Below are positions 10,957-62,260 of a stretch of 64,000 nucleotides of DNA, piece by piece. Position 1 is the stretch's first letter. Every line of letters starts with the position of its first letter. The notes beneath the pieces were generated by a model. That model ran no database searches. It was not told the DNA's origin and saw only the letters and a program-made list of their open reading frames with translations. Made by a program: the position numbers and the translations under genes. Source of the DNA: Patescibacteria group bacterium (GTDB lineage: Bacteria; Patescibacteriota; Minisyncoccia; Phycocordibacterales; JBBUBG01); contig JAZKIQ010000004.1 in assembly GCA_040384765.1 (NCBI GenBank), positions 63,434 to 127,433 of the forward strand. The letters run 5' to 3'.

Positions 10957-11015
10957 GTTAGATAGGGATTAGTACAGAAGGGACAAGGGACCAGGTGGTC
11001 CAATACCTCTTCTTA

Positions 11016-11050
11016 AAAAAAGAAAGTCCTGGCTTGCGCCGGACGTCCTT
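11016..11050 (-). terminator. Terminator downstream of the secreted low-complexity protein gene
   Basis: Minus strand reads aaaaaggacgtccggcgcaagccaggacttt-ctttttttaag. Confidence 0.6.
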
Positions 11051-11068
11051 TTTGGATAATAGCATCAC

Positions 11069-12064
11069 TTAGTACCCCCAGTCAAATGAGTCCCAGTCGG
11101 AGCTGACGTACTCGCTTCCGTACGAAGGAGGGAGGTTCCAGCTGTCGTCCGAGGACCAGATATCCCCAGAAATGAGGCTTCCCGTGAGGGGAAGATCGTT
11201 TGCGGAGTTTGAGTACAGGTAGTCGTAGCGGGCAGAGGAGATTGCGTTGAGTGTTTCTGGGTAGTACCCGTGGTCGTTGTCTGACATGTAGCCAAAGATA
11301 TCTTCATCATCAGAGAAGAGGGTGCTTGGCGTGCTCGCTGGTACGTAGCCACTCGAGTATGAAGTAGGGGAAGCGGAGTAAAACGGAGTCGAGGCATCAT
11401 ACGTGCGACCGTAGTTTTCGAGCTCTGCTACATAGCCTGAAGTAAGCGGTGCGCCTGGGTAGTACTCGCGTGCCGGGGCAAGGCGTGATGGCGAGATATA
11501 TGAAGAGCCGTTTACACAGTAGCCACAGCTGTTGCCAAGGTTGCCGAGCGATACGGAAGCGCTCCAGACTGTTGGGTATGGGCCCGAAAGGGGAACGATA
11601 TAGTAGTCAGGGGTGTAGGTGTTGTAGGAGGTAAAGCCAGAGCGCGTCGCAAAGGCAGACTGATTGTATGAGGGTGCGCCAAAAAGAGATGCCGACCCTG
11701 GTGCAGGAGGCGGATTTGAGCCAGGTGCTGGTGGCGGGTTTGATCCTGGTGCGAATGAAGCAATAGGAAGGATGTTTGCCGTCCGGGGGAGAGGCGCCAC
11801 TACGTTTGTATTTATATGTGTAGTACCACCACCAATAAAGGCTGGTCCGTTATTAATAGGAGCAATGGGTACTGGTGTAGCCACGGGAGCGGCAGCAAAA
11901 GGGAGCGGCTTTGTGGCAAGCGCGGTGGTGTTTGTAGACGATGGGTAGTAGGGGTTGCCGGTATAAAAGGCGGCATCGGTGACTACCTGGGCATGAGCAA
12001 AGACAGGGGAGGCAAGAAGTGCACCCCCGACAACCGCTTTTGCAATATATTTGGTGAGTTCCAT
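11069..12064 (-). CDS. Secreted low-complexity P/S/Y/G-rich protein with tandem PGSNPPPA repeats
   Basis: Signal peptide MELTKYIAKAVVGGALLASPVFAHAQ; repeat PGSNPPPAPGSNPPPAPGS. Confidence 0.6.
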   Translation of the reverse strand: MELTKYIAKAVVGGALLASPVFAHAQVVTDAAFYTGNPYYPSSTNTTALATKPLPFAAAPVATPVPIAPINNGPAFIGGGTTHINTNVVAPLPRTANILPIASFAPGSNPPPAPGSNPPPAPGSASLFGAPSYNQSAFATRSGFTSYNTYTPDYYIVPLSGPYPTVWSASVSLGNLGNSCGYCVNGSSYISPSRLAPAREYYPGAPLTSGYVAELENYGRTYDASTPFYSASPTSYSSGYVPASTPSTLFSDDEDIFGYMSDNDHGYYPETLNAISSARYDYLYSNSANDLPLTGSLISGDIWSSDDSWNLPPSYGSEYVSSDWDSFDWGY

Positions 12065-12123: not shown

Positions 12124-12238
12124 GCCTCTTCTGGATGTGTCTTTTTGGAACACGGATATTTTTCTGGTGAAAAATTCCTCGAGCTCGCTTCGGCCAAGCT
12201 CGCTAGTTTCCAAAAAGACACATCCAGAAGAGGTCTTG
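12121..12238. repeat. Family-1 element copy 1: conserved ~75-nt core clamped by a locus-specific 17-21 bp inverted repeat
   Basis: Core TTTTTGGAACACGGATATTTTTCTGGTGAAAAATTCCTCGAGCTCGCTTCGGCCAAGCTCGCTAGTTTCCAAAAA. Arms cctcttctggatgtgtc / gacacatccagaagagg. Confidence 0.8.
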
Positions 12239-25516: not shown

Positions 25517-25978
25517 ATGACCCCAAAAATAATCGCGTATACCGACGGGGGCTCGAGAAATAACCCGGGCGCGGCAGGGTCTGGGGCCTATATTATCGAT
25601 GCGGAAGGGAACGTCCTCAAAAAGGCGTGGAGGGCGCTTGGTGTCGCGACCAACAATGTTGCGGAGTATACGGCAGTGATCCTTGCTCTCGAAGAGATAA
25701 AAAAGTTGGTGCCGGAAGCGGCGCGAAAAGATGCGGAGATCGAGATCCGGATGGATTCAGAGCTTGTATGTAGACAGATGATGGGGAGATACAAAATAAA
25801 AGCACCAGGATTGAAGCCGCTGTATGCAGATGTGCGAAATCTGATTATCGACTTTCCAAAAACGAAATTTGTTCATGTGCGGCGCGAGCTAAACAAAGAT
25901 GCGGATGCTCTTTCGAATGTGGCGATGGATGAAAGTGAGAAGATGCTAGCGAGCGCGAAAGAAGGGTTGTTCAAATAA
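25517..25978 (+). CDS. rnhA: Ribonuclease HI (start MTPKIIAYTDGG)
   Basis: YTDGGSRNNPG...EYTAVILALE...HVRRELNKDADALSN. Confidence 0.88.
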   Translation: MTPKIIAYTDGGSRNNPGAAGSGAYIIDAEGNVLKKAWRALGVATNNVAEYTAVILALEEIKKLVPEAARKDAEIEIRMDSELVCRQMMGRYKIKAPGLKPLYADVRNLIIDFPKTKFVHVRRELNKDADALSNVAMDESEKMLASAKEGLFK

Positions 25979-26088
25979 ATAAAACAGTATCTTTTTTGGA
26001 ACACGGATATTTTTCTGGTGAAAAATTCCTCGAGCTCGCTTCGATCAAGCTCGCTAGTTTCCAAAAAAGATACTGTTTTATTTATTTG
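25972..26088. repeat. Family-1 element copy 2; the left arm contains the rnhA stop codon
   Basis: 20-bp perfect arms caaataaataaaacagtatc / gatactgttttatttatttg around the conserved core (nearly identical to copy 1). Confidence 0.8.
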
Positions 26089-29900: not shown

Positions 29901-29912
29901 TTAGATTTTCTT

Positions 29913-30010
29913 ATTGCCTAGTGAAGTGAGAGTCGCGAAAGTGTACTCACTTTCATGACCGAACGAATGACGGCAAAAAAGTGAGCACACTTTATGCTGC
30001 GACTGGCTCT
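29913..30010 (+). repeat. Family-2 element copy A (5' module); its 3' part encodes the last codons and stop of rpmB on the opposite strand
   Basis: ATTGCCTAGTGAAGTGAGAGTCGCGAAAGTGTACTCACTTTCATGACCGAACGAATGACGGCAAAAAAGTGAG. Confidence 0.75.
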
Positions 30011-32820: not shown

Positions 32821-32931
32821 GGCGCTCGCCACAGTTCCTTTTTGGAACACGGATAATTTTTTGCTAAAAATTTCCTCGAGCTCGCGCCGGTCGCGCTCCC
32901 TAGTTTCCAAAAAGGAACTGTGGCGAGCGCC
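32821..32931. repeat. Family-1 element copy 3, inside the str operon between rpsG and fusA
   Basis: 18-bp perfect arms ggcgctcgccacagttcc / ggaactgtggcgagcgcc; core variant ...GGATAATTTTTTGCTAAAAATTTCC... Confidence 0.8.
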
Positions 32932-37214: not shown

Positions 37215-37416
37215 CTTTGAGCCTGCGATCCATGACTCCGCGCGCCTACCCGGTGCGCGGTTCTCTTTTGTATAAGTGGCATAATCCACTTTTTGCCGTC
37301 ACTCGTTCGGGTATGAAAAGTGCTCTTTTCATGCCTCTCACTTCGCTAGGCAATAAAAAATGAAAGCCGTCATCTCCATCTTGCAAGGCAAGGGGAGCAT
37401 GACGGCTTCGAAGGTC

Positions 37417-37955: not shown

Positions 37956-39149
37956 ATGGCAGGAACATTTGATCGCTCCAAGCCACACGTCAACGTGGGC
38001 ACCATCGGCCACGTAGACCACGGCAAGACTTCGCTCACGGCTGCAATTCTTCACGTCCTCAACCTTGCAGGAAAGGATGTAAAGCTCCGCGGCATTGGCG
38101 AAATTGACAACGCTCCAGAAGAGCGCGCTCGTGGCATCACGATTGCCCTTTCTCACAACGAGTACTCGACAGACAAGCGTCACTACGCTCATATCGACGC
38201 TCCAGGTCACGCCGACTATATCAAGAACATGATCACCGGTGCCGCCCAGATGGACGGTGCGATCCTTGTGGTTGCCGCAACTGACGGTGTTATGCCTCAG
38301 ACTCGCGAGCATATTCTTCTTGCACACCAGATCGGTGTACCGAAGATCATTATCTTCCTCAACAAGATCGACCTCGTAGATGACAAGGAGATCATCGACC
38401 TCGTAGAGCAGGAGGTTCGTGAGCTTCTCACCAAGAACCACTACGATGGTGACAACGCTCCGGTTATTCGTGGTTCAGCAGTAAAAGCCCTTGAAACAAA
38501 AGCTTCTACCGAGGAGTGGGCAAAACCAATCTTGGATCTTGCTGACGCCCTCGACAACTATATTCCTCAGCCAGTCCGCGAGCTCGACAAGCCATTTCTT
38601 ATGCCAGTTGAAGACGTATTCTCGATCGAAGGTCGCGGTACGGTAGTTACCGGCCGCATCGAGCGCGGTGTCATCAAGGTAGGCGACAACATCGAAATTG
38701 TTGGTCTTAAGGATACCCAGAAGACGACCGTTACTGGTATTGAAATGTTCAACAAGTCTCTCGATGAGGGACAGGCTGGCGACAACGCAGGTATTCTTCT
38801 TCGCGGTCTCAAGAAGGAGGATATCGAGCGTGGCCAGGTGCTTTGCAAGGCAGCTTCAGTAACTCCACACACTGAGTTCACCGCAGAGGTGTACATCTTG
38901 AAGAAGGAGGAGGGTGGCCGTCACACGCCGTTCTTCACTGGCTACAAGCCTCAGTTCTATGTTCGCACAACGGACGTAACAGGTGAGGTAACCCTTCCTG
39001 AGGATGTAAAGATGGTTATGCCAGGCGATACCGTAAAGTTTGTGGTAAAGCTTGTAGCGCCGGTCGCTCTTGAGGAGCAGCAGCGCTTTGCTATCCGTGA
39101 AGGTGGCAAGACAGTAGGTGCAGGTGTCGTAACAAAGATCACGAAGTAA
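37956..39149 (+). CDS. tuf: Elongation factor Tu
   Basis: [14 protein letters not shown]...; 397 aa. Confidence 0.97.
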
Positions 39150-39204: not shown

Positions 39205-39561
39205 ATGGCAACGAAAGCTCCAAAAAAGACGACAAAGGTGAAAGAGGGAAGCGATCTCTCGAAGCTCCGCATTCGTATCAGTGCTTATGAAAATAAGGTG
39301 CTCGACGGATCGGTGCGACAGGTGATCGATACGGCGCTCCGCTATGGTGCGACTATCCAGGGTCCAACCCCGCTTCCGACCGAAATACGCAAGTACACCG
39401 TAAACCGCAGCTCCTTCGTGCACAAAAATGCGCGAGAGCAGTTTGAGATGCGCATCCACAAGCGCCTTGTCGATATTGTGAATCCGTCGCCAAAGATTGT
39501 TGAAGCGCTCACGAATCTCACCCTTCCGTCAGGTATCAATGTCGACGTGAAGATGATGTAG
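39205..39561 (+). CDS. rpsJ: Ribosomal protein S10 with N-terminal Lys-rich extension
   Basis: IRISAYENKVLDGSVRQVIDTALRYGATIQGPTPLPT. Confidence 0.93.
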   Translation: MATKAPKKTTKVKEGSDLSKLRIRISAYENKVLDGSVRQVIDTALRYGATIQGPTPLPTEIRKYTVNRSSFVHKNAREQFEMRIHKRLVDIVNPSPKIVEALTNLTLPSGINVDVKMM

Positions 39562-39575
39562 ATAGACATACTGAA

Positions 39576-40193
39576 ATGAAATTCATTCTGGGAACAAAAC
39601 AAGAGATGGTTCAGCTCTTCGATGAGAAGGGTAATGTCCACGCGGGCACTATCGTTTCTGCCGGGCCCGTTGTCGTGACCCAGGTGAAGACTGCGGAGAA
39701 AGATGGCTATGAAGCGCTACAGCTTGGCTATGGAGTGCAGAAGGAGTCTCGCCTCTCAAAAGCCGAGAAGGGTCATCTCAAAGATCTTCCCCTTTCTCGC
39801 GTGCTTCGCGAAACCCGCCTGGCTGCTCCGGCTGACGCCGCTCTCGCTCGCGGTACTTCGATCGACCTTTCAAGCTTTGCTGAGGGTGACCCAATCGAAG
39901 TGACGGGCATCTCAAAAGCAAAAGGGTTCCAGGGTACGGTGAAGCGCCATGGTTTCCATGGAGGCCCTCGCACGCACGGCCAGAAGCACTCTGAGCGTGA
40001 GCCAGGTTCTATTGGCGCCGGTGGATACCAGCGCGTATTTAAGGGCCGACGCATGTCTGGCCGCATGGGAGGGGATCAGGTGACCGTAAAGAACCTTCGC
40101 GTTTTGAAGGTTGACGCCGCTACAAATACGATGATTATCTCAGGTGCTGTCCCGGGCCGCCGAGGCACTCTTCTTGCGATCAAAGGTAAATAA
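39576..40193 (+). CDS. rplC: Ribosomal protein L3
   Basis: Canonical L3. Confidence 0.95.
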   Translation: MKFILGTKQEMVQLFDEKGNVHAGTIVSAGPVVVTQVKTAEKDGYEALQLGYGVQKESRLSKAEKGHLKDLPLSRVLRETRLAAPADAALARGTSIDLSSFAEGDPIEVTGISKAKGFQGTVKRHGFHGGPRTHGQKHSEREPGSIGAGGYQRVFKGRRMSGRMGGDQVTVKNLRVLKVDAATNTMIISGAVPGRRGTLLAIKGK

Positions 40194-40199
40194 ACCGAT

Positions 40200-40865
40200 A
40201 TGAAAGCAACGATCTATACACAAGAAGGGAAGGAAAACGGCTCAATCGAGCTTGCTGATTCGATGTTTGGTCTCGCGTGGAACGGCGACCTCGTAAAGCA
40301 GGTTGTTGACTCGATGCTCTCTTCTCGCCGCAAGCCAGTTGCTCATACGAAGGGTCGCGGAGAGGTGCGCGGAGGAGGCAAGAAGCCATGGAAGCAGAAG
40401 GGTACAGGCCGTGCACGTCATGGATCAATCCGCTCGCCAATCTGGCGAGGTGGAGGAGTCACCCACGGACCAACAAACGAGAAAATCTTCGAGCGCAAGA
40501 TCTCAAAGAAGATGAAGGCGAAGGCTCTGCTCACGATCCTCTCCCAGAAGCTCCGCGAAGGGGAGGTGCTCTTTGTGGATTCGCTCGTGCTTAGTGCTCC
40601 AAAGACAAAGGAGGCTACGAAGGTGCTCATGGCACTCTCAAAGGTGAAAGGCTTCGAGAAAATGTCGTACAAGAAAGGCTCACGTGCCCTTCTTGCGGTG
40701 CCTGCACATGATGCGAAGCTCGCTCGCTCATTCCGCAATATTGCTTCTGTCGGTATCGATGAGGCTCGCAATATGAATCCAGTCGATCTGCTTCGCTACA
40801 AATATTTGGTGATCGCTCGTCCAGAAGAGTCGCTCAAAACGGTAGAGGGGAGGCTCGTTAAGTAA
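40200..40865 (+). CDS. rplD: Ribosomal protein L4
   Basis: Canonical L4. Confidence 0.95.
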   Translation: MKATIYTQEGKENGSIELADSMFGLAWNGDLVKQVVDSMLSSRRKPVAHTKGRGEVRGGGKKPWKQKGTGRARHGSIRSPIWRGGGVTHGPTNEKIFERKISKKMKAKALLTILSQKLREGEVLFVDSLVLSAPKTKEATKVLMALSKVKGFEKMSYKKGSRALLAVPAHDAKLARSFRNIASVGIDEARNMNPVDLLRYKYLVIARPEESLKTVEGRLVK

Positions 40866-40879
40866 TCGACTGCACCACC

Positions 40880-41203
40880 ATGGCAACCAAAAAGAACAAA
40901 AACGAACTCCCCGAAGCGGCTCCGAAAAAAATCTCGGTGCTTATAAAGCCACGGGTGACTGAGAAGGCAGCCATGAGCGCATCGCGCGATCTTCCTGCGT
41001 ATGTGTTTGAGGTGCTTCCGGGGACCAACAAGAATGCGGTCGTCGCTGCTATTAAAGAGCAGTACAAAGTGAACCCAATCAAAGTTCGCATGACCTCTCT
41101 TCCCCGCAAACAGGTGTTTGTTCGCGGCAAGTGGGGGATGAAAAGCGGCATCAAGAAGGCCGTTGTATATCTTGCAAAAGGTGATAAGATCGATCTCGCC
41201 TAA
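40880..41203 (+). CDS. rplW: Ribosomal protein L23
   Basis: Canonical L23. Confidence 0.93.
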   Translation: MATKKNKNELPEAAPKKISVLIKPRVTEKAAMSASRDLPAYVFEVLPGTNKNAVVAAIKEQYKVNPIKVRMTSLPRKQVFVRGKWGMKSGIKKAVVYLAKGDKIDLA

Positions 41204-41208
41204 CTTCC

Positions 41209-42054
41209 ATGCTTAAGCACTACCGCCCTACATCAAAATCTCGCCGTCATATGTCCACGATCATGTATCGTGGAGTTATCACGACGAACGAACCGTACAA
41301 GCCGCTCACCTCTGGTGGTAAGCGCGACATGGGCCGCAACAATGCTGGCCGCATCTCGGTCCGCCACAAAGGAGGAGGTTCGAAGAAGCTCTATCGTCTC
41401 ATCGACTTTGTATACAATAAGCGCGATGTTCTCGCGACTATTGAGACCGTAGAGTACGATCCATACCGCTCGGGCTTTATCTCTCTTGTCGTGTATCGCG
41501 ACGGTGAGCGCCGCTACGTGCTTCTTCCAAAGTCGCTCGGCGTAGGAGACACCTTTGTGGTTTCGGAGAAGGCGGATATCAAGCCGGGCAACCGTTTGCC
41601 TCTTAAGAATATTCCTGTAGGTACGTTTGTATATAATATCGAATTTCACCCAGGTGGAGGTGGCAAGATCTCGCGATCTGCTGGCAACTATGCTGAGGTT
41701 CTTTCCAATGACGCTGGCTACACCAATGTGCGCATGCCGTCGGGCGAGGTGCGCAAGGTAAATGGTATGTGCTGGGCATCGGTGGGAGAAGTCTCAAACG
41801 GAGAACATAACCTCGTAAACTTCGGCAAGGCAGGACGCTCACGATGGAAGGGTATTCGCCCAACGGTTCGTGGTACTGCTATGAACCCGGTAGATCACCC
41901 ATACGGTGGTGGTGAAGGGCGCCAGGGTCGTGGTACTCGCCGAGCGAAGTCCCTCTGGGGCAAGCCAACAGGCGGGCACAAAACTCGTACTCCCAAGAAA
42001 TACTCAAATATTTTCCGAGTGTCGCGACGCCCTAAGAAGCTTCGCAAGAAGTAA
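41209..42054 (+). CDS. rplB: Ribosomal protein L2
   Basis: Canonical L2; 281 aa. Confidence 0.96.
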   Translation: MLKHYRPTSKSRRHMSTIMYRGVITTNEPYKPLTSGGKRDMGRNNAGRISVRHKGGGSKKLYRLIDFVYNKRDVLATIETVEYDPYRSGFISLVVYRDGERRYVLLPKSLGVGDTFVVSEKADIKPGNRLPLKNIPVGTFVYNIEFHPGGGGKISRSAGNYAEVLSNDAGYTNVRMPSGEVRKVNGMCWASVGEVSNGEHNLVNFGKAGRSRWKGIRPTVRGTAMNPVDHPYGGGEGRQGRGTRRAKSLWGKPTGGHKTRTPKKYSNIFRVSRRPKKLRKK

Positions 42055-42056
42055 TC

Positions 42057-42086
42057 AAAACGCCGCCCTTCGGGCGGCGTTTTTCG
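42057..42086 (+). terminator. Rho-independent terminator directly after rplB (interrupts the S10 operon)
   Basis: aaaacgccgcccttcgggcggcgtttttcg. Confidence 0.7.
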
Positions 42087-42125
42087 TTAGAGATTTTCTA
42101 AAAAGAAAAGTGGTACACTGGCTCT

Positions 42126-44147
42126 ATGAAAAAAAATGTAGCTAGGTTCTTTCTCTTCGTTTTGCTCATCATTACGTCTTTTGGTACTCCGTCCCGAGTA
42201 TCAGCTTTCACGGAGCTGGAAAGGGAAATACTTATCGCGAAGCTCCAGGCACAGATCACGGGGTTGCTTGCACAGCTCCAACAGCTCAAAGCTACTTCAA
42301 CGAGCACGAGCTTTTGCCACGATTTTAACCAAAATTTGGGCGTTTCTTCGTATGTGAATGATGTGGTTTTGCTCAAAGCGGCCCTGAACAAAGAGGGAAT
42401 TAGCATCGACTCCAAGCCACTGTTTGATGAAGATACGGCAACGGCAGTAATCGCGTTTCAGGCAAAGCATGGTATTCGTCAGACGGGATATGTGGGGCCT
42501 CTCACGCGTGGCAAGCTCAATCAGCTCTACCGTTGTGCAGTCGCAACACAGCAGTCTTCTTCGAAGCCGGCTCTTTCCACGTCGGCAACCCCTGTCATCT
42601 CCTACGTACAGGGGTCTTCGGGAGATCGAAATATCCTTCGCCTTGGTGAATCGGCAACGATCTTTGGGACCAATCTCCAGAACGCCGTGAATATACGTTT
42701 TTCTTCGAATGGATCGACGGTAGCCCTCATTCCCGTTACCAATACGAATTTCTCTATTCTTACTTTTACCGTTCCCTCATCACTACCCGGCGCAACGATA
42801 CTGACTGTCGAACTTCCTTCGAGTGCCGGTACGTGGACTGCCATCACGATCGCAAACAATAATCAAAATGTGCCAGCCATTACCTTCGTGGGTGGCAAGG
42901 ATCGTCTCGATGGTCACATGAGCATAGGATCAGTGACTCAAATAAACGGAAATTTCAACGGCACCATTACGTTAGGATATTTGCGAGGTGCAGCAGGTAC
43001 CGTAGACCAAACATATTTTTTTACGCCGCTCACTCGATGTGATGGTACAAATGGAATACATTGTTTGTCGCCCATCGTGCCCGCAAATGTTCCGGCGGGG
43101 CAGTACATGCTCTATCTCGCGAATGCACATGGTACAAGTGCAGGCTTTCCGGTGGTTGTGGATGCGGCTGGAACTTTGCTGTCCTCCAAGCCGGACATTT
43201 CAGTTTCCTCGGTTACTTTCTTTCCGGCCAGTCCAAAGGTGAACGATCTTGTTACGGTGTCGGTGACAGTTACGAATAACAGTTCGGTAGACATCACGAC
43301 CCCATTTTCGATCAACGTACAAGGGACAGCGAAGTCCGTCAGTTTTCTTCAGGCACACACCAGTCAGATAGTGACAGTTAACAACGCTTTTTCATTTGCG
43401 GATCCGGGGGTGAAGACGCTCAATTTTCCGGTGGATATTTCCAATTCGATAGATGAAAGTAATGAGAACAACAACGTGTACGTTGCGATTCTCTCTTTTG
43501 TCACGAATGCGCCTTCTGTTTCCATTACATCACCGCGCGAGAAAACGTACTGGAAAAAGAATACTCTTGCAACATGGACATGGAAAATAAGTGAATCTCA
43601 GATGCCGGTCGATATCTGGCTCATTCGTCCGAACGGTGCAGGAAATCTAGTATTTGCGAAGTCATATCCTAGTAATGATGGAGTCTTCTCGTGGAATGTA
43701 GGACTTACCCCATTCGAGTGGAATATGGCGGATAATATTCCCAACGGTGAATATCGTGTCGCTGTGTGTCCGGCGGGAGCGGCGATAGGGTCTACGTGTG
43801 GAATATTTAGTACGACTATCTATGGGTCTCAAGTAAAAGAGATAACGGTAACTTCGCCAGCGGCGGGAACCCAGCTTAGGCCTGGGGATACGGTGAGAGT
43901 TGTATTTGCGAGGCCTGTTGTAGGAGAAAAATATTCGGTTACCCTGTATGCAGGAGGTGTATATCCACTCGGTACGCTTATCGGTACGGATAGTTCCGAG
44001 CAGGCAGCTTTCTTTACTATCCCTTCAAATACGGGTCTGTCGGCCGGGCTTGCTGTTATCGAGGTGAGCCAGCTTACGAGTGATGGGGTTAATTGCGTCA
44101 ACTTTTGTACTCGTGCTGATTCTGGAAACCTGACAATTACCCGCTAG
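42126..44147 (+). CDS. Secreted cell-surface protein: signal peptide, coiled coil, peptidoglycan-binding domain, CARDB/Ig-like repeats
   Basis: PG_binding_1-like VVLLKAALNKEGISIDSKPLFDEDTATAVIAFQAKHGIRQTGYVGPLTRGKL; CARDB-like DLVTVSVTVTNNSSVDITTPFSINV...NENNNV. Confidence 0.75.
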   Translation: MKKNVARFFLFVLLIITSFGTPSRVSAFTELEREILIAKLQAQITGLLAQLQQLKATSTSTSFCHDFNQNLGVSSYVNDVVLLKAALNKEGISIDSKPLFDEDTATAVIAFQAKHGIRQTGYVGPLTRGKLNQLYRCAVATQQSSSKPALSTSATPVISYVQGSSGDRNILRLGESATIFGTNLQNAVNIRFSSNGSTVALIPVTNTNFSILTFTVPSSLPGATILTVELPSSAGTWTAITIANNNQNVPAITFVGGKDRLDGHMSIGSVTQINGNFNGTITLGYLRGAAGTVDQTYFFTPLTRCDGTNGIHCLSPIVPANVPAGQYMLYLANAHGTSAGFPVVVDAAGTLLSSKPDISVSSVTFFPASPKVNDLVTVSVTVTNNSSVDITTPFSINVQGTAKSVSFLQAHTSQIVTVNNAFSFADPGVKTLNFPVDISNSIDESNENNNVYVAILSFVTNAPSVSITSPREKTYWKKNTLATWTWKISESQMPVDIWLIRPNGAGNLVFAKSYPSNDGVFSWNVGLTPFEWNMADNIPNGEYRVAVCPAGAAIGSTCGIFSTTIYGSQVKEITVTSPAAGTQLRPGDTVRVVFARPVVGEKYSVTLYAGGVYPLGTLIGTDSSEQAAFFTIPSNTGLSAGLAVIEVSQLTSDGVNCVNFCTRADSGNLTITR

Positions 44148-44162
44148 CCGTTAGGTGAGAAA

Positions 44163-44195
44163 AACAAAAGCCGCCCCTAGGGGCGGCTTTTGTTT
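44163..44195. terminator. Bidirectional terminator
   Basis: aaaagccgcccctaggggcggcttttgtttt. Confidence 0.7.
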
Positions 44196-44199
44196 TGCA

Positions 44200-44356
44200 T
44201 TTAGCGATAAAGCTTCTCGAGCTTCGCACTATTTGCTTGTGCCGAACGGTGCGCTTTCTCGGAGTAGGAGGTCCTGACCGTAGCAAAGGCAAGTTTCCGA
44301 GAAGTGCCAAGGGCGAGGATAAGGATCGTTGCGATAACTGTAAGTGAAAGAATCAT
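44200..44356 (-). CDS. Possible small membrane protein (51 aa), below the ORF-track size cutoff
   Basis: MILSLTVIATILILALGTSRKLAFATV...; own translation. Confidence 0.25.
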
Positions 44357-44478
44357 TGATGATAGTTCTGCTGATTGAAGCAGGAATGTAGTGTATTCCT
44401 CTGGAAAATCAATGCAAGCACGACAGTATATGAAGAGAGCCGTTTCCCAAGGGAAACGGCTCGTCCGGGCTTGCGCTG

Positions 44479-44691
44479 CTACTGCGTGTGGCTTGGGGCG
44501 CCGGGCACCCCTCCGATACGCAGCATAATTTTTTGGGAGGCTGCCCTCCTGCTTGCGCGTGCCTCCTCGGCCAGTTTCTCCTCGAGGCGGCTCGGGCCGT
44601 GGAGTGCTGCGACTATAACCACAGCAATTAGTCCCAAGATTACGCCGTACTCGATGAGTCCCTGCTTCTCTTCGCTGTACTTTTGGAACAT
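44479..44691 (-). CDS. flp: Flp/Fap-family pilin (type IVb/Tad pilin)
   Basis: EKQGLIEYGVILGLIAVVIVAAL, the Flp motif; SD ggggtga. Confidence 0.7.
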   Translation of the reverse strand: MFQKYSEEKQGLIEYGVILGLIAVVIVAALHGPSRLEEKLAEEARASRRAASQKIMLRIGGVPGAPSHTQ

Positions 44692-44765
44692 TACATCACC
44701 CCTTTTAGGTGTTCCGTATCTTTATATAATACCTTATTTTTCCTGATCTGTCTAGATGGCGTCTA

Positions 44766-44930
44766 TTGCCTAGTGAAGTGAGCGTCGCGAAAATGTACTC
44801 ACTTTCATGACCGAACGAACGACGGCAAAAAAGGTGAGTACCCCGTCAGCTTTGCTGCGGACCCCAGTGTCAGTACTCTCACGCTGGGGTCCGAGGGCTT
44901 GCCCCGGGGTTAATACCCTTTATTTTTGCC
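44766..44930 (+). repeat. Family-2 element copy B (full length); its 3' module encodes the last ~14 codons and stop of the pterin dehydratase gene on the opposite strand
   Basis: 5' module ATTGCCTAGTGAAGTGAGCGTCGCGAAAATGTACTCACTTTCATGACCGAACGAACGACGGCAAAAAAGGTGAG; 3' module TACCCCG-hairpin-hairpin-GGGCTTGCCCCGGGGTTAATACCCTTTATT. Confidence 0.8.
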
Positions 44931-45238
44931 GCAAGAATGAAGTCGTTTTCAGAAAGACCACCAATTGCATGGGTCGAGAGCTCGAGTCGAACAATGTTGT
45001 ACGAGATCCAGATGTCAGGGTGGTGGCCTTCCTCTTCCGCAATTTTGGCAACAGCATTCACAAAATGCATTGATTGTTTAAAATCTTCGAATTTCCACTC
45101 CTTCATGAGCTTCTTTGCTCCATCGATTTTCCAGCTTGGGTCGCTGAGCTCGGAGAGAAGGGGAGCAATCTCGCTTTCCGTGAGTGGTGGCACGCCACCT
45201 TCGCACGGCACGCACTTTTTTTCGGCAAGCATGGTCAT
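44879..45238 (-). CDS. phhB: Pterin-4a-carbinolamine dehydratase (PCD/DCoH)
   Basis: FVNAVAKIAEEEGHHPDIWISYNIVRLELSTHAIGGLSENDFILAAKI. Confidence 0.8.
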   Translation of the reverse strand: MTMLAEKKCVPCEGGVPPLTESEIAPLLSELSDPSWKIDGAKKLMKEWKFEDFKQSMHFVNAVAKIAEEEGHHPDIWISYNIVRLELSTHAIGGLSENDFILAAKIKGINPGASPRTPA

Positions 45239-45291
45239 AACAAAATAGATGAAAAGTGTTAGTATCGCTAGTATATAACCTCATCATCGCT

Positions 45292-45855
45292 ATGGATATT
45301 TTCAAGAAAGGGTGGGTCTGGGTGATTGTCGCAGTTTTGGTGCTTGGTATCTGGGCTGTATCGTCCTACAACAGCTTCGTCTCGCTTTCCGAGGGCGCGG
45401 ATACGCAGTGGGCACAGGTGGAGAATCAGTTCCAGCGCCGTTTTGACCTCGTGCCAAACCTCGTAGCTTCCGTAAAGGGTTCGCTTGCTCAAGAGCAGAA
45501 AGTGTTTGGTGACATTGCCGATGCTCGTACTCGGTATGCTGGGGCAGCATCAGTTGACGATAAGGTGGCGGCTGCAAACCAGCTCGAAGGCTCACTCGCG
45601 CGGCTTCTTGTGATTGTTGAAAGCTATCCCCAGCTCGCTTCGCAGGCAAATGTGCGTGCACTCATGGATGAGCTCGCTGGTACCGAAAACCGTATTGCTG
45701 TGGAGCGCGGCCGTTTCAATGAAAAGGTGCAGGCGTACAATATCGCGGTAAAGCGCTTTCCGGGAGTGGTCACCGCATCACTTTTTGGATATAAGGAGCG
45801 AGCGCTGTTTAAGGCAAACGAAAATGCCGACACTGCTCCGGCGGTTTCTCTCTAG
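45292..45855 (+). CDS. lemA: LemA-family membrane protein (start MDIFKKGWVWV)
   Basis: TM plus LemA helical domain; classically paired with a TPM protein. Confidence 0.85.
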   Translation: MDIFKKGWVWVIVAVLVLGIWAVSSYNSFVSLSEGADTQWAQVENQFQRRFDLVPNLVASVKGSLAQEQKVFGDIADARTRYAGAASVDDKVAAANQLEGSLARLLVIVESYPQLASQANVRALMDELAGTENRIAVERGRFNEKVQAYNIAVKRFPGVVTASLFGYKERALFKANENADTAPAVSL

Positions 45856-46717
45856 ATCGGCTGCTCTTACACTCACGCTCCTTCTCGGGAGTGCGAGTGT
45901 GTATGCGGCAGTAGCTCTTCCTCCAGAGGGGTTTGTAAACGACCGTGCAAATCTTCTCTCGGAAGCCTATCGAGAGGCGCTTGAAACCGAGCTCAGAGAG
46001 TACGAGCAAATCTCAGGGAATGAGATCGCGCTTCTTGCCGTGCCCACTAGTCCCGAAGGCTCGATAGAGGAGTTCGCCGTGGAGGTGTTTGAAGAGTGGG
46101 GGATTGGAAAGAGCGACGCGGACAACGGGCTTTTGCTCGTGATTGCAAAGGAGGATCGAAAGATTCGAATAGAGGTAGGATACGGCCTCGAGTCGTATAT
46201 TACCGATGGCCGAGCGGGTAGAATTATTCGAGACGATATGGCGCCCCTCTTCAAGGAAGGAGAGTACGACGAAGGGGTGGCGGCGGCAATCTTGAGGATC
46301 AAAGAGCATCTCTCGGGTGCGCCTGCTGGAGCAGCTGAAGAGAGTTCAGGAGATGAGTACGCGCCGTTTATTGTTCTCGGGTTCTTCTTTGTGCAGTTCG
46401 TGTTTGGTGGATTGCTTCATGTGATGGCGAAGAGTAAAAGTGTTCTTCTTGGTGGAGGTTTGGGTATTGTCCTTGGTCTCGGGATAGGTTTTCTTGTAGG
46501 TCTTGGGTCGGTAGGGCTTATTTTCGCCCTCGCATTCTTTGGGGGCATCGGCACACTTTTTGACTGGCTTGTCTCGAACTATGCTTCAGAGCGCGTACGG
46601 AAGGGAGAATCGCCCTTTTGGGGTTATGGTGGTGGAGGAAGCAGCTCGGGAGATAGTGGATTTGGGGGCTTTGGAGGGGGTTTTTCGGGGGGAGGGGGAG
46701 CTTCAGGGGGCTGGTAA
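45824..46717 (+). CDS. TPM-domain (YgcG-like) protein with C-terminal TM and Gly-rich tail
   Basis: Signal peptide; [20 protein letters not shown]; tail [18 protein letters not shown]. Confidence 0.85.
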
Positions 46718-46728
46718 AAGCCCTTGGT

Positions 46729-46756
46729 TTGACAGTATCCATAGGTTTGCTAATAT
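46729..46756 (+). promoter_or_regulatory. Sigma70 promoter TTGACA-16-TAATAT re-initiating the rpsS...rplE operon
   Basis: ttgacagtatccataggtttgctaatat. Confidence 0.6.
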
Positions 46757-46793
46757 GCTTGTCACGCACTTTGCGGCTTTTTCTTTTGAAAAG

Positions 46794-47141
46794 ATGGCAC
46801 GATCCCTCAAAAAAGGACCATATCTAGACCCTCGCGTTCTCAAAAAGATCGCAGGCAAGAAACCCGAAAGCACACCTCTCATCAAGACGTGGTCTCGGGC
46901 ATGCCAAGTTTCTCCCGAGATGGTCGGGTTTCTCTTTGGTGTTCACAACGGCAAGATCTTTATCGAGGTGCGCTGCACCGAAGATATGGTAGGCCACCGC
47001 CTTGGAGAGTTTTCACCAACGCGCAAGTTTATCCGCCACGGTGGAAAGATGCAGAAGGAGCTTGAGCTGAAGAAGAAAGAGTCCGAGGTTGCAGCAGCAA
47101 AGGCCGCTAAAGAGGCGCCAGCTGCCGCACCGAAAAAATAG
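46794..47141 (+). CDS. rpsS: Ribosomal protein S19 with Lys/Ala-rich C-terminal tail (start MARSLKKGP)
   Basis: [18 protein letters not shown]...[13 protein letters not shown] plus [13 protein letters not shown] tail. Confidence 0.93.
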
Positions 47142-47153
47142 TTTTTATATCCC

Positions 47154-47498
47154 ATGGAAGTACGCGCATCACTCAACCGCTATCGCCAGTCTCCTCGCAA
47201 GGTCCGCCTTGTGGCTGCTGCTATTAACGGAAAGCGTGCTTCCGAGGCTCTCGTCTTTCTCGGCGTAACAGCGAAGCGTTCTGCTGGGCCAATCGCGAAG
47301 CTTGTATCGAGCGCCGTTGCAAACGCAAAGAACCGCCAGCTCGACATTGAGACACTCTATGTCAAAAGCGTTACGGTGAACGAGGGTCCAACTCTAAAGC
47401 GTTTTATGCCCCGCGCCTTCGGCGTTGCAAAGCGCATCAACAAGCGTACATCGCATGTTGAGATCGTACTTTCAGACGAAAAGAAGGCAAAGAAATAA
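47154..47498 (+). CDS. rplV: Ribosomal protein L22
   Basis: Canonical L22. Confidence 0.93.
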   Translation: MEVRASLNRYRQSPRKVRLVAAAINGKRASEALVFLGVTAKRSAGPIAKLVSSAVANAKNRQLDIETLYVKSVTVNEGPTLKRFMPRAFGVAKRINKRTSHVEIVLSDEKKAKK

Positions 47499-47502
47499 TT
47501 TT

Positions 47503-48162
47503 ATGTCGCATACAGTACATCCATACTCCCACCGCCTCGGCATTCTTCGTGACTGGAAGTCTCGCTGGTTTGGTGCGCGCGGCATGTATCAGAAATACCT
47601 CAAGCAGGATATTCTCCTTCGCGAGTTTCTCGAGCTCCGTCTTCGCGGCATGTATGTAAACTCTATCGAGATGGAGCGCGGCCAGAACACGCTTCGCGTT
47701 ATCTTGAAGACGTCTCGTCCGGGTATGATCATCGGCCGATCGGGGGAGGGCGCGCAGAAGCTCCGCAACGACATCATCAAGAAGCTCAGCCGCATCAAGG
47801 CTCCAATGCCAGGTGACGTTCGTATCGATATTGAAGAGGTTCGCGTACCGGAGGCTCACTCTGCGATTGTTTCTCAGATGATTGCTGAACAGCTTGAAAA
47901 GCGGTTGCCGTTTAAGCGCGTGATGAAGCAGACGATCGAGAAAGTGCTTGCAAATAAAGGGGTGGCAGGGGTGAAGATCACTCTGTCTGGCCGTCTCGGC
48001 GGTGCAGAGATGGGGCGTGTTGAAACGCTCAAAAAGGGCCGTCTTCCGCTCCAGACCCTTCGCGCTGATATCGACTTTGCTCGCGAGAAGGCCCATCTTT
48101 CATACGGAGATATCGGAATCAAGGTATGGATTTACAAAGGTGATGTATTTCCTACCAAATAA
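47503..48162 (+). CDS. rpsC: Ribosomal protein S3 (start MSHTVHPYSHRLGI)
   Basis: KH domain plus S3 C-terminal domain. Confidence 0.94.
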   Translation: MSHTVHPYSHRLGILRDWKSRWFGARGMYQKYLKQDILLREFLELRLRGMYVNSIEMERGQNTLRVILKTSRPGMIIGRSGEGAQKLRNDIIKKLSRIKAPMPGDVRIDIEEVRVPEAHSAIVSQMIAEQLEKRLPFKRVMKQTIEKVLANKGVAGVKITLSGRLGGAEMGRVETLKKGRLPLQTLRADIDFAREKAHLSYGDIGIKVWIYKGDVFPTK

Positions 48163-48168
48163 ACTGCC

Positions 48169-48588
48169 ATGCTTTTCCCTAAAAAAGTAAAACATCGCAA
48201 GTGGCACGTAATGCGATCAAATCCGAAGAAGAAGCGCGTAGAGACGCGTGGCACTACGGTTGCATTCGGTTCGTTTGGGCTGAAAGCGACGACACCCGCT
48301 CGTATCAAGTCGACGCAGATCGAAGCTGCCAGGAAGGCAATGCAGCGAAACCTCAAGAAAGCTGGCCGTATCTGGATTCGCATCTTCCCAGACATGCCAT
48401 ATGTAGGGCGTTCGGGAGAGGTGGGCATGGGTAAGGGAAAGGGTGATCCCCAGGGATATGTCTTTCAGGTATGGCCAGGACGCGTACTTTTTGAGATCGA
48501 CGGTGTTGATGATGCGCTTGCGCACGACACGCTGATGAAGGGGTCTGCAAAGCTCCCGTTAACTGCGCGCGTTGTTGCTCGAACATAA
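48169..48588 (+). CDS. rplP: Ribosomal protein L16
   Basis: Canonical L16. Confidence 0.95.
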   Translation: MLFPKKVKHRKWHVMRSNPKKKRVETRGTTVAFGSFGLKATTPARIKSTQIEAARKAMQRNLKKAGRIWIRIFPDMPYVGRSGEVGMGKGKGDPQGYVFQVWPGRVLFEIDGVDDALAHDTLMKGSAKLPLTARVVART

Positions 48589-48594
48589 ACTACT

Positions 48595-48852
48595 ATGACT
48601 GCTACCCCCACAAAACGAGAGGCAAGAACAATGAAAGGCGTCGTCGTGTCCGACAAGATGGACAAGACGGTGGTTGTCGTTGTTGAGCGATATGTTAAAC
48701 ACCCGAAGTACGGCAAATACCAGACGTTACGCAAGCGATTTAAGGCACATGACGAAGGAAATATGTACAAGACGGGAGACAAGGTAGTTATTGCCGAGTC
48801 AAAACCAATTTCAAAAGATAAGTCGTTTGTTGTTGTTTCGAAAGCAGCTTAA
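48595..48852 (+). CDS. rpsQ: Ribosomal protein S17
   Basis: KGVVVSDKMDKTVVVVVERYVKHPKYGK. Confidence 0.94.
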   Translation: MTATPTKREARTMKGVVVSDKMDKTVVVVVERYVKHPKYGKYQTLRKRFKAHDEGNMYKTGDKVVIAESKPISKDKSFVVVSKAA

Positions 48853-48857
48853 TTGCC

Positions 48858-49226
48858 ATGATACAGCCACGATCCATAGTAAAAATTGCAGACAACACGG
48901 GCGCCAAGATCGGCCGCATCTTCAAGGTGCTTGGTGGATCAAAGCGTCGCTACGCTCGCATTGGCGATGTCGTTGTTCTCTCCGTGCAGGTTGCCGAGCC
49001 TCGCAAGGCCACAAAAAAGAAGGATGTGGTAAAAGCAGTTGTTGTTCGCTCGCGCAATCCGTACCGTCGCGCAGACGGCTCGTATGTTCGCTTCGACGAA
49101 AACGCAGTCGTGATCATCGACGCAAAGAAGGAGCCGATTGGCGGACGTATCTTCGGTCCTATCCCACGCGAGATCGTGGAGGCAGGGTATCAGAAGATTG
49201 GCTCGCTCGCTCCTGAAGTCGTTTAA
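48858..49226 (+). CDS. rplN: Ribosomal protein L14
   Basis: MIQPRSIVKIADNTGAK. Confidence 0.96.
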   Translation: MIQPRSIVKIADNTGAKIGRIFKVLGGSKRRYARIGDVVVLSVQVAEPRKATKKKDVVKAVVVRSRNPYRRADGSYVRFDENAVVIIDAKKEPIGGRIFGPIPREIVEAGYQKIGSLAPEVV

Positions 49227-49235
49227 TGCACATAT

Positions 49236-49550
49236 ATGGCAGCTACACTTAAAAAATCAGATACGGTTATCGTGCTTTCAGGAAAGGATGCAGGAAAGAA
49301 GGGGAAGATCCTTCGTGTGTTTCCGAGCGATCACAAAATCTTGGTGGAGGGTGTCAACGAGCAGAAGCGCCACCAGCGCCCATCTAAGTCAAACCAGAAA
49401 GGCCAGATCGTCACAAAGCTTTCTCCGATTCATATCTCAAACGCGCTTTACTACTGCTCGAAGTGTGGCAAAGGTGTGCGAATGGGGGCAAAGATGATTG
49501 GAGATAAGAAGGTCCGCGCCTGCAAAGGCTGCGGCGTCGAGCTTGCGTAA
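49236..49550 (+). CDS. rplX: Ribosomal protein L24 with C-terminal C4 zinc-ribbon
   Basis: KOW VIVLSGKDAGKKGKI; tail CSKCGKGVRMGAKMIGDKKVRACKGCG. Confidence 0.9.
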   Translation: MAATLKKSDTVIVLSGKDAGKKGKILRVFPSDHKILVEGVNEQKRHQRPSKSNQKGQIVTKLSPIHISNALYYCSKCGKGVRMGAKMIGDKKVRACKGCGVELA

Positions 49551-49606: not shown

Positions 49607-50143
49607 ATGAAAAACGAACTGAAATCTCACTACATAAAAACGATCCCCGCCATCAAGGAGGAGCTTGGCATTAAGAATGTCATGGCCGTTCCAAAGATCA
49701 CCAAGGTGGTGGTATCAACGGGCACGGGCCGAAATCGTGATAAGAAGCGAGCAGCACTCATTGTTGACCGTCTTGCAAAGATTACTGGCCAAAAGCCGGC
49801 TTCGCGCGGTGCCAAGAAATCGATCGCAAGCTTCAAGCTTCGCGAGGGTGAAATCATTGGATACCAGATTACTCTTCGTGGTGCTCGCATGTGGAGCTTT
49901 CTCTCAAAGCTGATCAACGTGGCAATCCCACGTACCCGTGACTTCCGAGGTCTTGAGACAAAGGGAGTTGATGAGATGGGCAACTTCACGATGGGTGTAA
50001 AAGAGCATATTGTGTTCCCAGAGAGCGCCGACGAAGATATCAAGGATGTGTTCGGAATCGCTGTTACCGTAGTAACGACCGCAAAGGACAAGAAGTCTGC
50101 AGAATCGCTTCTCCGAGCCGTAGGGTTTCCGTTTAAGAAGTAA
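49607..50143 (+). CDS. rplE: Ribosomal protein L5
   Basis: Canonical L5. Confidence 0.95.
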   Translation: MKNELKSHYIKTIPAIKEELGIKNVMAVPKITKVVVSTGTGRNRDKKRAALIVDRLAKITGQKPASRGAKKSIASFKLREGEIIGYQITLRGARMWSFLSKLINVAIPRTRDFRGLETKGVDEMGNFTMGVKEHIVFPESADEDIKDVFGIAVTVVTTAKDKKSAESLLRAVGFPFKK

Positions 50144-60784: not shown

Positions 60785-60831
60785 CTAGACTTCTTACCCT
60801 GGCTGGTATTAATATCTATACAAGTTTGATT

Positions 60832-61041
60832 CGGGACGTGGTGTAACGGTAACATTCACGAGATGGGGTCGAATCTTTTGTCGGGCTATAGTGTAACGGT
60901 AACATTCACGATTCGGGTTCGTGAGACTCTGGGTTCAAATCCCAGTAGCCCGACAAAAGATTTGACGGGAATGCCCCAAGCGCATTCCCCGGATTTTCAG
61001 CAGAAAATGTGAGACTCCGGGTTCAAATCCCGGCGTCCCGA
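60832..61041 (+). tRNA. Split or nested tRNA-Pro(UGG)-like gene: 5' half 60832-60868, 3' half 61007-61041, interrupted by 138 nt that contain the tRNA-Pro(CGG) gene
   Basis: Acceptor CGGGACG pairs perfectly with CGTCCCG; T arm CCGGG-TTCAAAT-CCCGG (compensatory relative to the inner tRNA); anticodon loop GATGGGG. Confidence 0.4.
60882..60953 (+). tRNA. tRNA-Pro (anticodon CGG)
   Basis: Hand-folded: acceptor CGGGCTA/TAGCCCG; D stem GTGT/ACAT; anticodon stem CACGA/TCGTG; loop TTCGGGT; T arm CTGGG-TTCAAAT-CCCAG. Confidence 0.8.
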
Positions 61042-61159
61042 CTGAGCAAGGCGAAGGAGCGGAGGAGAAAATGCCCTGCGGCATTTTTGTTCGGTATTTG
61101 AAGGACTTTTCAATGTCGAGCAATGCGAGACGTGAAAAGTACCCGCGACGGTAGTCGAA

Positions 61160-61970: not shown

Positions 61971-62101
61971 AACGTCTTCTCTCACCGATCGACAGTTCGA
62001 AGAAACCCCGACGTGTCCTACGGGGTTTCTTTGCTAAAAGAGAGGTAAACCCTCTCTTTTAGCAAAGAAGTTATGCATAAAAACCGTTTGCAGATTACTT
62101 G

Positions 62102-62260
62102 ATTGCCTAGCGTAGTGAGAGAAATGAAAAGAGTACTTTTTATTTCCGAACGAGCGACGGCAAAAAAGGGCAGATACCCCGCCGCTTTGCGGCGCCCCGT
62201 ACAAACAGTACACTGGTTGTACGGGGCGGGGGCTTGTCCCGGGGTTAATACCCTTTATTC
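62102..62260 (+). repeat. Family-2 element copy C, immediately upstream of the cupredoxin gene
   Basis: GATTGCCTAGCGTAGTGAGAG...CGAACGAGCGACGGCAAAAAAGGGCAGATACCCCG-hairpins-GGGCTTGTCCCGGGGTTAATACCCTTTATT. Confidence 0.75.

Follow-up and report, generated by a model that had tools for sequence, protein, structure and literature searches.

A 4.7-kb gene-bearing spacer between rplB and rpsS probably fills an old, clade-wide break in the S10 ribosomal protein cluster of Paceibacteria

The adjacency of rplB and rpsS in the S10 ribosomal protein (r-protein) cluster is treated as near-invariant, and the genes of this cluster underlie the concatenated-marker phylogenies that place bacteria of the candidate phyla radiation (CPR). 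Hot spots of gene turnover between conserved core genes are known from chromosomal horizontal gene transfer (HGT) in free-living bacteria. Of 113 genomes covered by one survey, more than 110 had rplB and rpsS as operon members (PMC2837039), and r-protein leaders and attenuators, such as the L4-responsive S10 leader of Escherichia coli, have been reviewed as narrowly distributed (PMC3616713). Here we analyse a 64,000-nt stretch of DNA from a Patescibacteria group bacterium (contig JAZKIQ010000004.1 of assembly GCA_040384765.1, positions 63,434 to 127,433), hereafter the window, in which rplB and rpsS are separated by a gap of 4739 bp with genes on both strands. An earlier interpretation made from the letters and open reading frames (ORFs), hereafter the sequence-only reading, had described this gap as an island-like gain interrupting the core operon. 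Our results make it likely that the 4.7-kb stretch is not a recent island and that it fills an old, clade-wide break in the S10 cluster, where the spacer between a terminator and a promoter is a spot of gene turnover.

As in the canonical S10/spc operons of the E. coli and Bacillus subtilis type, all junctions other than rplB|rpsS are tight. The window differs from those operons in that a terminator, 4.7 kb of cargo and an internal promoter separate rplB from rpsS, in that rpmC is missing from its place between rplP and rpsQ, which leaves ten of the 11 genes from rpsJ to rpsQ in their canonical order, and in that the cluster ends at rplE. The contiguity expected of a single-unit S10 operon fails over 4739 bp, with a strong predicted terminator, genes on both strands and a conserved promoter between rplB and rpsS. 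ORF and Pfam analysis confirmed the non-ribosomal stretch proposed by the sequence-only reading, including a secreted peptidoglycan (PG)-binding/CARDB protein, pterin-4a-carbinolamine dehydratase (PCD) and a LemA/TPM-domain pair; a 51-amino-acid membrane ORF and a Flp-like ORF complete the six protein genes. The operon is interrupted physically and very probably transcriptionally as well.

The upstream unit, tuf/rpsJ-rplC-rplD-rplW-rplB, closes with rplB (41209-42054, plus strand; Pfam Ribosomal_L2_N and L2_C), which, as had been claimed, ends with a terminator of its own. The predicted intrinsic-terminator hairpin at 42057-42083, AAAACGCCGCCC-TTC-GGGCGGCGTTTT, has 12 base pairs, eight of them GC, symmetrical A/T flanks and a T-run. 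Homologous strong, A/T-flanked GC hairpins were recognized by eye directly 3' of rplB in three close relatives (L081, L082 and L083), and terminator hairpins follow rplB in L084 and L085 too. By a scripted scan, such terminators were present after rplB in none of 27 non-CPR loci but in 17 or more of 52 CPR loci; the scripted counts are lower bounds, obvious cases such as L081 having been missed.

On the other side of the gap, rpsS (46794-47141, plus strand; ATG at 46794; Pfam S19 over residues 3-82) lies behind the putative promoter TTGACA-16-(TG-C)TAATAT at 46729-46756 on the plus strand (TTGACA 46729-46734, TAATAT 46751-46756), which has 10 of 12 matches to the sigma-70 hexamers and a TG upstream of the -10. 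A motif match alone means little, nine promoter-like sites occurring in 15 kb against 10.9 expected in shuffles, so the evidence for this promoter is its conservation at orthologous positions. When the 160 nt 5' of rpsS were aligned and matches were scored by regular expression, 34 of 50 Paceibacteria loci had a strong TTGACa/t-16-(TTTGC)TAnTAT upstream of rpsS, among them the window and L081-L083. Across 26 aligned relatives the hexamers were invariant or near-invariant, with T1, T2, G3, T18, T20, G21, T23, A24, A27 and T28 identical in every sequence. The motif and position given by the sequence-only reading were right, but the promoter is orthologous across the clade and not "new", as that reading had it. 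It was also found in genomes with gaps of only about 85-185 bp (L001, L004, L006, L008, L011 and L013), from which we infer that the internal promoter is probably older than the expansions of the gap.

Between this promoter and rpsS, at 46765-46787 on the plus strand, the 5' leader contains a hairpin, CGCA-CUU-UGCG, followed by the U-run GCUUUUU. The clade consensus is AAGCUC-loop-GAGCUU-UUUU, with the hairpin starting 6-9 nt after the -10 in most loci, that is, at the predicted 5' end of the transcript. The stem of the window differs in sequence yet is complementary and occupies the same position, as would be expected of a diverged counterpart. A pattern search for the motif gave 21 plus-strand matches 5' of the S19 gene and, elsewhere, almost only their reverse complements, and the hairpin belongs to no Rfam family. 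Like known r-protein leaders, it is a conserved structured element (hairpin and U-run) between a promoter and the first r-protein gene; it differs from them in being a single hairpin of 4-7 bp at the predicted transcript 5' end. A tentative possibility is that it serves as an attenuator or a stabiliser and so provides feedback control specific to the middle unit.

The distribution of the break was then established by comparison. The best matches to ribosomal protein L2 among 185,579 species genomes were all Paceibacteria-type Patescibacteria/CPR at no more than 70% identity, labelled Nomurabacteria, Taylorbacteria, Kaiserbacteria or Paceibacterota. Relatives were sampled by L2 similarity, r-protein genes were placed by tblastn on 80 fetched loci, and all junctions were measured. 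In 46 Paceibacteria loci the L2|S19 gap had a median of 443 bp and a maximum of 6.2 kb, exceeding 300 bp in 26 loci and 1 kb in 13, as against a median of 23 bp and a maximum of 159 bp in 27 non-CPR loci. Most of the remaining junctions from tuf to secY never exceeded 300 bp in Paceibacteria, the exceptions being S10|L3 (2 of 39 loci), L24|L5 and L15|SecY (one locus each), and L16|S17, where rpmC normally sits (7 of 43 loci). The comparison with the other junctions and with the non-CPR controls shows that the break is specific to this junction and this clade, apart from a second variable junction in Paceibacteria, L5|S14 (rplE|rpsN), which had a median of 219 bp in 34 loci (14 of the 34 above 300 bp and 9 above 1 kb) compared with a median of 41 bp and a maximum of 177 bp in 22 non-CPR loci.

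In a rough neighbour-joining tree of eight r-proteins, three genomes with a tight rplB|rpsS junction (7-27 bp) were basal, and every other measured genome fell within one large clade whose junctions are open, at 60 bp or more. Near neighbours on this tree differed widely in gap length (176 versus 1178 bp, 131 versus 1054 bp and 149 versus 795 bp), which indicates repeated expansion and contraction. Dozens of Paceibacteria share the orthologous rpsS promoter and leader, and nearly all of these genomes have an open junction, of between 60 bp and 6.2 kb; the break appears to be far older than its cargo.

The closest relatives locate most of the cargo at the same junction. Five contigs from independent assemblies (L081-L085, the first three from groundwater and sediment samples) encode an L2 that is 80-87% identical to that of the window, and in all three that span the junction the gap is filled with 1.8-3.0 kb of cargo. 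L081 (L2 87%) carries an ADP-ribosylglycohydrolase gene, a 61-amino-acid ORF and a minus-strand PCD gene before rpsS (gap of 2.0 kb); L082 (82%) a small minus-strand transmembrane (TM) ORF, a 187-amino-acid protein of unknown function, LemA and TPM before rpsS (3.0 kb); and L083 (81%) a small minus-strand TM ORF, a 140-amino-acid protein of unknown function and TPM before rpsS (1.8 kb). L084 (84%) has the ADP-ribosylglycohydrolase, a minus-strand Flp-like ORF and LemA before the contig ends short of rpsS, and in L085 (81%) the approximately 370 bp between rplB and the contig end are likewise non-ribosomal DNA without rpsS. Five of the six protein genes of the gap thus have positional homologues in L081-L084. 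Identity to the window was 62% for PCD in the same gap (L081), 67% (L082) and 69% over a partial sequence (L084) for LemA at the same junction, 51% (L082) and 33% (L083) for TPM, immediately 5' of rpsS in both, 36% (L082) and 41% (L083) for the small TM ORF, and 41% over 27 amino acids (E 8e-7) for the Flp-like ORF (L084). These values of 33-69% are at or below those of the faster-evolving r-proteins of the same genomes (L23 55-60%, L22 65-68% and L4 61-73%, with S19 at 87-94%), so the cargo looks vertically inherited with losses. A metagenome scan with LemA for closer relatives returned none above 62% identity; in the 80 next-closest loci (50-62% identity) TPM was adjacent in 61 and L2/S19 was nearby in none, and this linkage of the pair away from L2/S19 suggests that it entered the gap once, in the ancestor of the sub-clade. 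The sequence-only reading had proposed synteny as a check, with an ancestral arrangement counting against gain: such an arrangement was found for the break and for most of the cargo, while the exact gene content differs between relatives.

The composition of the gap was native overall. Its GC content was 0.502, where the window had 0.520 and the r-protein blocks on either side had 0.527 and 0.511, its tetranucleotide distance was exceeded by 20 of 119 equal-sized windows, and the GC content of its genes, both overall and at third codon positions (GC3), lay within 1.7 standard deviations (sd) of that of 70 ORFs of the window. The compositional discontinuity that an island would be expected to show was therefore not seen for the gap as a whole, and the PG-binding/CARDB gene alone was mildly atypical (GC 0.483 and GC3 0.479, against 0.525 and 0.555 for window genes), which fits either a later arrival or the composition of a Ser/Thr/Asn-rich protein. 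No integrase or transposase Pfam domain was found in the gap, no tRNA near it, no bracketing repeat of 25 nt or more around it, and no phage, plasmid or defence-system (PADLOC) match for it. Of the features by which genomic islands are recognized (compositional deviation; mobility genes, tRNA or bracketing repeats; absence from close relatives), the gap as a whole shows none.

The dispersed repeat to which the sequence-only reading had attributed a possible role in the gain, its "family-2", is present in the gap, as that reading stated, and lies at 44764-44924 (plus strand) between the Flp-like and PCD genes and overlapping the end of the latter, whose last ten or so codons and stop come from the repeat. 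The element, of about 150 nt, occurs four times in the 64 kb, the other copies being at 62099-62259, 29912-29981 and, as reverse complement, 37290-37318. The two long copies share a two-domain fold, of which the copy at 29912 has the first domain; folding z-scores ranged from -3.3 to -6.0, and the internal hairpins vary in sequence between copies yet stay paired. It has no Rfam family and could be a multi-copy small RNA or a miniature inverted-repeat transposable element. Since the copy lies within the gap, brackets nothing and is found in this genome only, none having turned up in the rplB|rpsS gaps of relatives, we rejected repeat-mediated insertion.

Gene by gene, the cargo begins with the secreted, wall-associated PG_binding_1 and CARDB protein (42126-44147, plus strand; 673 amino acids with an N-terminal signal peptide). 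It is the only protein gene of the gap without a counterpart in the examined relatives: it was not found in L081-L085, and its best non-self match among 5.8 billion proteins, covering 41% of its length, had 34% identity. The first same-strand gene after rplB in each of three separate lineages encodes a large secreted Ig-like or wall-binding protein, namely this PG_binding_1+CARDB protein in the window, a Big_7+PG_binding_1 protein in L021 (5389-9708) and a Big_7 protein in L051 (6311-7987); the recurrence could be coincidence or selection for position. The PG-binding/CARDB gene converges with the 51-amino-acid ORF on a putative bidirectional terminator (44160-44198), which resembles, by local alignment, the rplB terminator (GCCGCCC/GGGCGGC stem) and the terminator between rplB and the small ORF of L082. 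That ORF (44201-44356, minus strand), a single-pass membrane protein with a KLAFA motif, had been proposed as a possible second small membrane ORF; it is conserved, with homologues directly 3' of rplB on the minus strand of L082 and L083 (tblastn E 1e-5 and 2e-6; BLASTP E 7e-10).

The next ORF (44479-44691, minus strand), a small hydrophobic protein of 70 amino acids with a QG-LIEYG motif, had been called a Flp-type pilin. It has a homologue in the same gap of L084. Its score against Pfam PF04964 was 22.6 bits (E 9.6e-5), below the gathering cut-off of 32.2, and we refer to it as Flp/Fap-like. Of the prepilin processing motif G/XXXXEY with its hydrophobic helix, QG-LIEYGVILGLIAVV has the Gly, the Glu-Tyr and the helix, although Glu-Tyr stands at +3/+4 after the Gly and not at +5/+6, a spacing that is identical in L084. 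A promoter-like TAGACA-17-TATTAT lies by this ORF at 44754-44726. The PCD gene (PCD/DCoH; 44879-45238, minus strand) matched Pterin_4a PF01329 (1.9e-32, 111.6 bits against a cut-off of 26) and NCBIfam NF002017 (85.5 against 80). On the plus strand follow LemA (45292-45855; PF04011, 7e-51, 172.3 bits), whose ORF opens at GTG 45256 and which probably starts at ATG 45292 with the conserved MDIFKKGW, and the TPM-domain (YgcG-like) membrane protein with a Gly-rich tail (45824-46717; TPM_phosphatase PF04536, 1.6e-40, 138.4 bits), whose likely start at 45824 overlaps the end of LemA by 32 nt; both Pfam scores are above cut-off. An overlapping TPM gene with a TM segment and Gly-rich tail after LemA is what other LemA-TPM pairs show, but the location between rplB and rpsS is confined to this sub-clade. 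From the TPM stop to the rpsS -35 there are 11 nt in the window, with no terminator between.

In more distant Paceibacteria the gap cargo is varied and unrelated to that of the window. It comprised an HlyD/MacB ABC exporter with a 23S-IVS protein (L005), an aminotransferase with an Orn/DAP decarboxylase (L009 and L025), the 1439-amino-acid Big_7/PG_binding_1 protein of L021 and the Big_7 protein of L051, a diacylglycerol kinase (DAGK; L022), and a HicA toxin with a putative HicB-like partner and a NusG-like protein (L027). In L027 a 130-bp copy of the rplB 3' end, 84% identical, lies at 11438-11583, just after the hicA-containing insert, and is a true insertion scar at the junction; it is the one clear duplication scar among the 46 loci. 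Many Nomurabacteria-like genomes have instead 0.4-1.2 kb of ORF-poor DNA that is 5-10 GC points above its locus. Such GC-richer spacers of L014, L017, L019, L026 and L034 are stacks of strong, unrelated hairpins (folding z from -4 to -10), the spacer of L017 at 10823-11200 having at least seven hairpins and a minimum free energy of -164 kcal/mol (z = -9.8); folding z was about -1 to -2 in L010, L012, L018 and L036 and +0.6 in L023. A single non-coding RNA shared by these spacers was considered and rejected, as only some of them are strongly structured and no common sequence exists even between near neighbours. An Rfam scan of the window, ten relatives' loci and three gap regions gave only a tRNA-Pro and sub-threshold hits on a terminator hairpin.

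A model in which the boundary came first would account for this locus. In an ancestor of the clade, rplB|rpsS would have become an operon boundary through a terminator, followed by a promoter and leader, leaving the Paceibacteria cluster in separate units: rpsJ-rplB, running to an intrinsic terminator, and rpsS-rplE, expressed from a conserved sigma-70-type promoter of its own (TTGACa/t, 16 nt, TG-n-TAnnAT), its transcript beginning with a short leader made up of a hairpin and a U-tract. As the two halves would then be independent of read-through, DNA could enter the spacer without polar effect on the ribosomal genes, which would make it a permissive site for genes that arrive, persist for some time and disappear again. 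The spacer of the window's sub-clade would have gained an envelope-related set (small TM ORF, Flp-like, PCD and LemA-TPM), inherited vertically with losses, and later additions would be the PG-binding/CARDB gene and the repeat in the window, the ADP-ribosylglycohydrolase in L081 and L084, and the 187-amino-acid protein in L082. In the window, the PG-binding/CARDB gene, with a terminator on either side, would form its own plus-strand transcript; PCD and the Flp-like and small TM ORFs would be transcribed on the minus strand towards the bidirectional terminator; and LemA-TPM would be transcribed on the plus strand, where the distance of only 11 nt between the TPM stop and the -35 would allow read-through into rpsS. 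While the anatomy, orthology, distribution and composition are observed, the transcription units, the sequence of events (promoter before cargo) and the neutrality of the cargo are what we infer.

Several observations weigh against this account. A strong rpsS promoter match was lacking in 16 of the 50 loci scored, and some genomes with small gaps have no detectable terminator 3' of rplB, so that part of the clade may have a leaky or only partial split. The terminators, the promoter and the unit boundaries are predictions from sequence and conservation, the tree is rough, and the sample was drawn by L2 similarity. The tetranucleotide distance of the PG-binding/CARDB gene was above that of 243 of 248 2-kb windows (z of about +2.7, with GC at -1.7 sd), and a recent foreign origin is possible for this gene alone. 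LemA-TPM stands on the same strand directly 5' of rpsS, with no terminator between, in three genomes, a placement that could reflect selected co-expression rather than neutrality.

The alternatives were weighed against the same evidence. A recent genomic island, i.e. a single horizontally acquired block of about 4.7 kb, possibly mobilized by repeats, in an intact S10 operon, would agree with the non-ribosomal genes between rplB and rpsS, with the genome-specific and mildly atypical PG-binding/CARDB gene, with the mutually similar terminators flanking that gene and with the dispersed repeat in the block. However, relatives with only 80-87% L2 identity to the window contain positional homologues of five of the six protein genes, the promoter and leader of rpsS appear to predate the cargo by a wide margin, and the composition is native overall; moreover, no integrase, transposase, tRNA, bracketing direct repeat or phage or plasmid similarity was found, and the repeat, which lies within the gap, was not seen in the gaps of relatives. 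As an account of the entire block this view is largely refuted, and we regard it as very improbable. Of the island-like gain claimed by the sequence-only reading, the interruption, the non-ribosomal additions and a genome-specific PG-binding/CARDB gene stand; the single island does not, nor does its mediation by repeats. An artefact of assembly or binning, in which a contig misjoins two pieces at the r-protein cluster, is conceivable for a metagenome-assembled genome, but is hardly credible when four independent assemblies from other samples have non-ribosomal genes after rplB, three of them spanning rplB-cargo-rpsS with homologous cargo, when composition is continuous over both borders, and when the borders are a regular terminator and a conserved promoter.

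Selection might have recruited the cargo, above all LemA-TPM, for adaptive co-expression with growth-rate-controlled ribosomal genes. TPM is co-oriented with rpsS and, in the window, lies 11 nt from its promoter without a terminator between; it is in the same place in L082 and L083 and is preceded by LemA in the window and L082. In addition, the window, L021 and L051, three separate lineages, each have a gene for a large secreted wall-binding protein downstream of rplB and co-oriented with it. We nevertheless think this unlikely, given that rpsS retains its own conserved promoter, that L081 has no LemA-TPM, that other Paceibacteria carry unrelated cargo or only a non-coding spacer, and that a strong terminator stands between rplB and the PG-binding/CARDB gene. 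Somewhat less probable again is a dedicated integration hot spot, in which the rplB 3' end or its terminator would be an attachment or recombination site for site-specific or hairpin-targeting cassette insertion. The rplB 3'-end duplicate of 130 bp and 84% identity after the hicA-containing insert of L027, the pair of similar GCCGCCC/GGGCGGC terminators bracketing the lineage-specific gene of the window and the strong hairpin stacks in several relatives' spacers speak for such a mechanism; against it, no recombinase was found in or near any examined gap, only one clear duplication scar occurred among 46 loci, and the likeness of terminators can be convergent. An old break refilled by gene turnover remains the reading that we consider likely.

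The remaining genes of the cluster, identified from the ORF listing and Pfam, are tuf (37956-39149), rpsJ (39205-39561), rplC (39576-40193), rplD (40200-40865) and rplW (40880-41203) upstream of rplB and, after rpsS, rplV (47154-47498), rpsC (ending at 48162), rplP (48169-48588), rpsQ (48595-48852), rplN (48858-49226), rplX (49236-49550) and rplE (49607-50143), the last gene of the downstream unit rpsS-rplV-rpsC-rplP-rpsQ-rplN-rplX-rplE. A tblastn search with seven CPR L29 proteins found no rpmC match in the 64-kb window or in L081-L083, even at E<10. The rplP|rpsQ gap is 4-11 bp in the window, L081, L082 and L083, compared with about 240 bp in most relatives, and the junction is likewise too small for rpmC in L021, L022, L027, L032, L037 and L049. 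In the window and L081-L083 the r-protein cluster ends at rplE, which is followed by genes for RNase III, HD_3, Pro_CA_2 and SecA; S14, S8, L6, L18, S5, L15 and SecY were not present in the fetched DNA. A broader interpretation is that Paceibacteria have re-partitioned the S10-spc supercluster into rpsJ-rplB, rpsS-rplE and rpsN onward, that the hairpin and U-tract are an undescribed r-protein leader, and that the two boundaries are preferred sites of gene turnover; this we put forward as a tentative and rather doubtful extension.

Two further features of the window were seen outside the cluster. A repeat family, D1, has a 75-nt core, 85-100% identical, in three copies (12125-12233, 25972-26088 and 32821-32931), each lying exactly between perfect inverted repeats of 26-30 nt whose outer sequence is copy-specific; it looks like an element inside copy-specific palindromes or terminator hairpins. 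At 60831-61042, a tRNA-Pro(CGG) (60882-60954) is nested in an apparent second tRNA, with outer tRNA-like halves at 60831-60871 (5') and 61009-61042 (3'), whose acceptor ends are complementary (TCGGGACG / CGTCCCGA) and whose anticodon loop is UGG-like. Between the halves, the 137-nt piece is flanked by a perfect 9-nt inverted repeat (AATCTTTTG / CAAAAGATT). ARAGORN and Rfam called the inner tRNA-Pro alone; a tRNA that is nested or interrupted would explain the region, as would the scar of a duplication.

Set beside the HGT hot spots of free-living bacteria, the rplB|rpsS gap shares core-gene flanks, content that differs between relatives, and repeated gain and loss at one locus. It differs in lying inside the most conserved bacterial gene cluster, in that no integrases, tRNA genes or prophage remnants were found, and in its cargo, which consists mostly of small envelope- or housekeeping-type genes and, in many relatives, of non-coding hairpin-rich DNA. 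We found no literature description of an rplB|rpsS split in CPR, which, the library being incomplete, is weak evidence; as far as checked, the clade pattern, in which the cluster is re-partitioned, rpsS has a conserved promoter and leader, and genes turn over at two junctions, is undescribed.

Taken together, these results suggest that the insertion of the window is ordinary and old for its clade, and that the clade-level pattern is the more interesting result. A whole CPR class with an open, promoter-equipped break at this position and a second one after rplE would mean that even this cluster can be re-partitioned, and would offer a natural case in which an internal promoter frees an operon from the constraint of contiguity. 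Annotation and binning of Paceibacteria should expect contigs to stop or to diverge downstream of rplB. For the biology of these reduced genomes, the pattern would provide two defined loci of accessory-gene turnover and a conserved candidate leader RNA.

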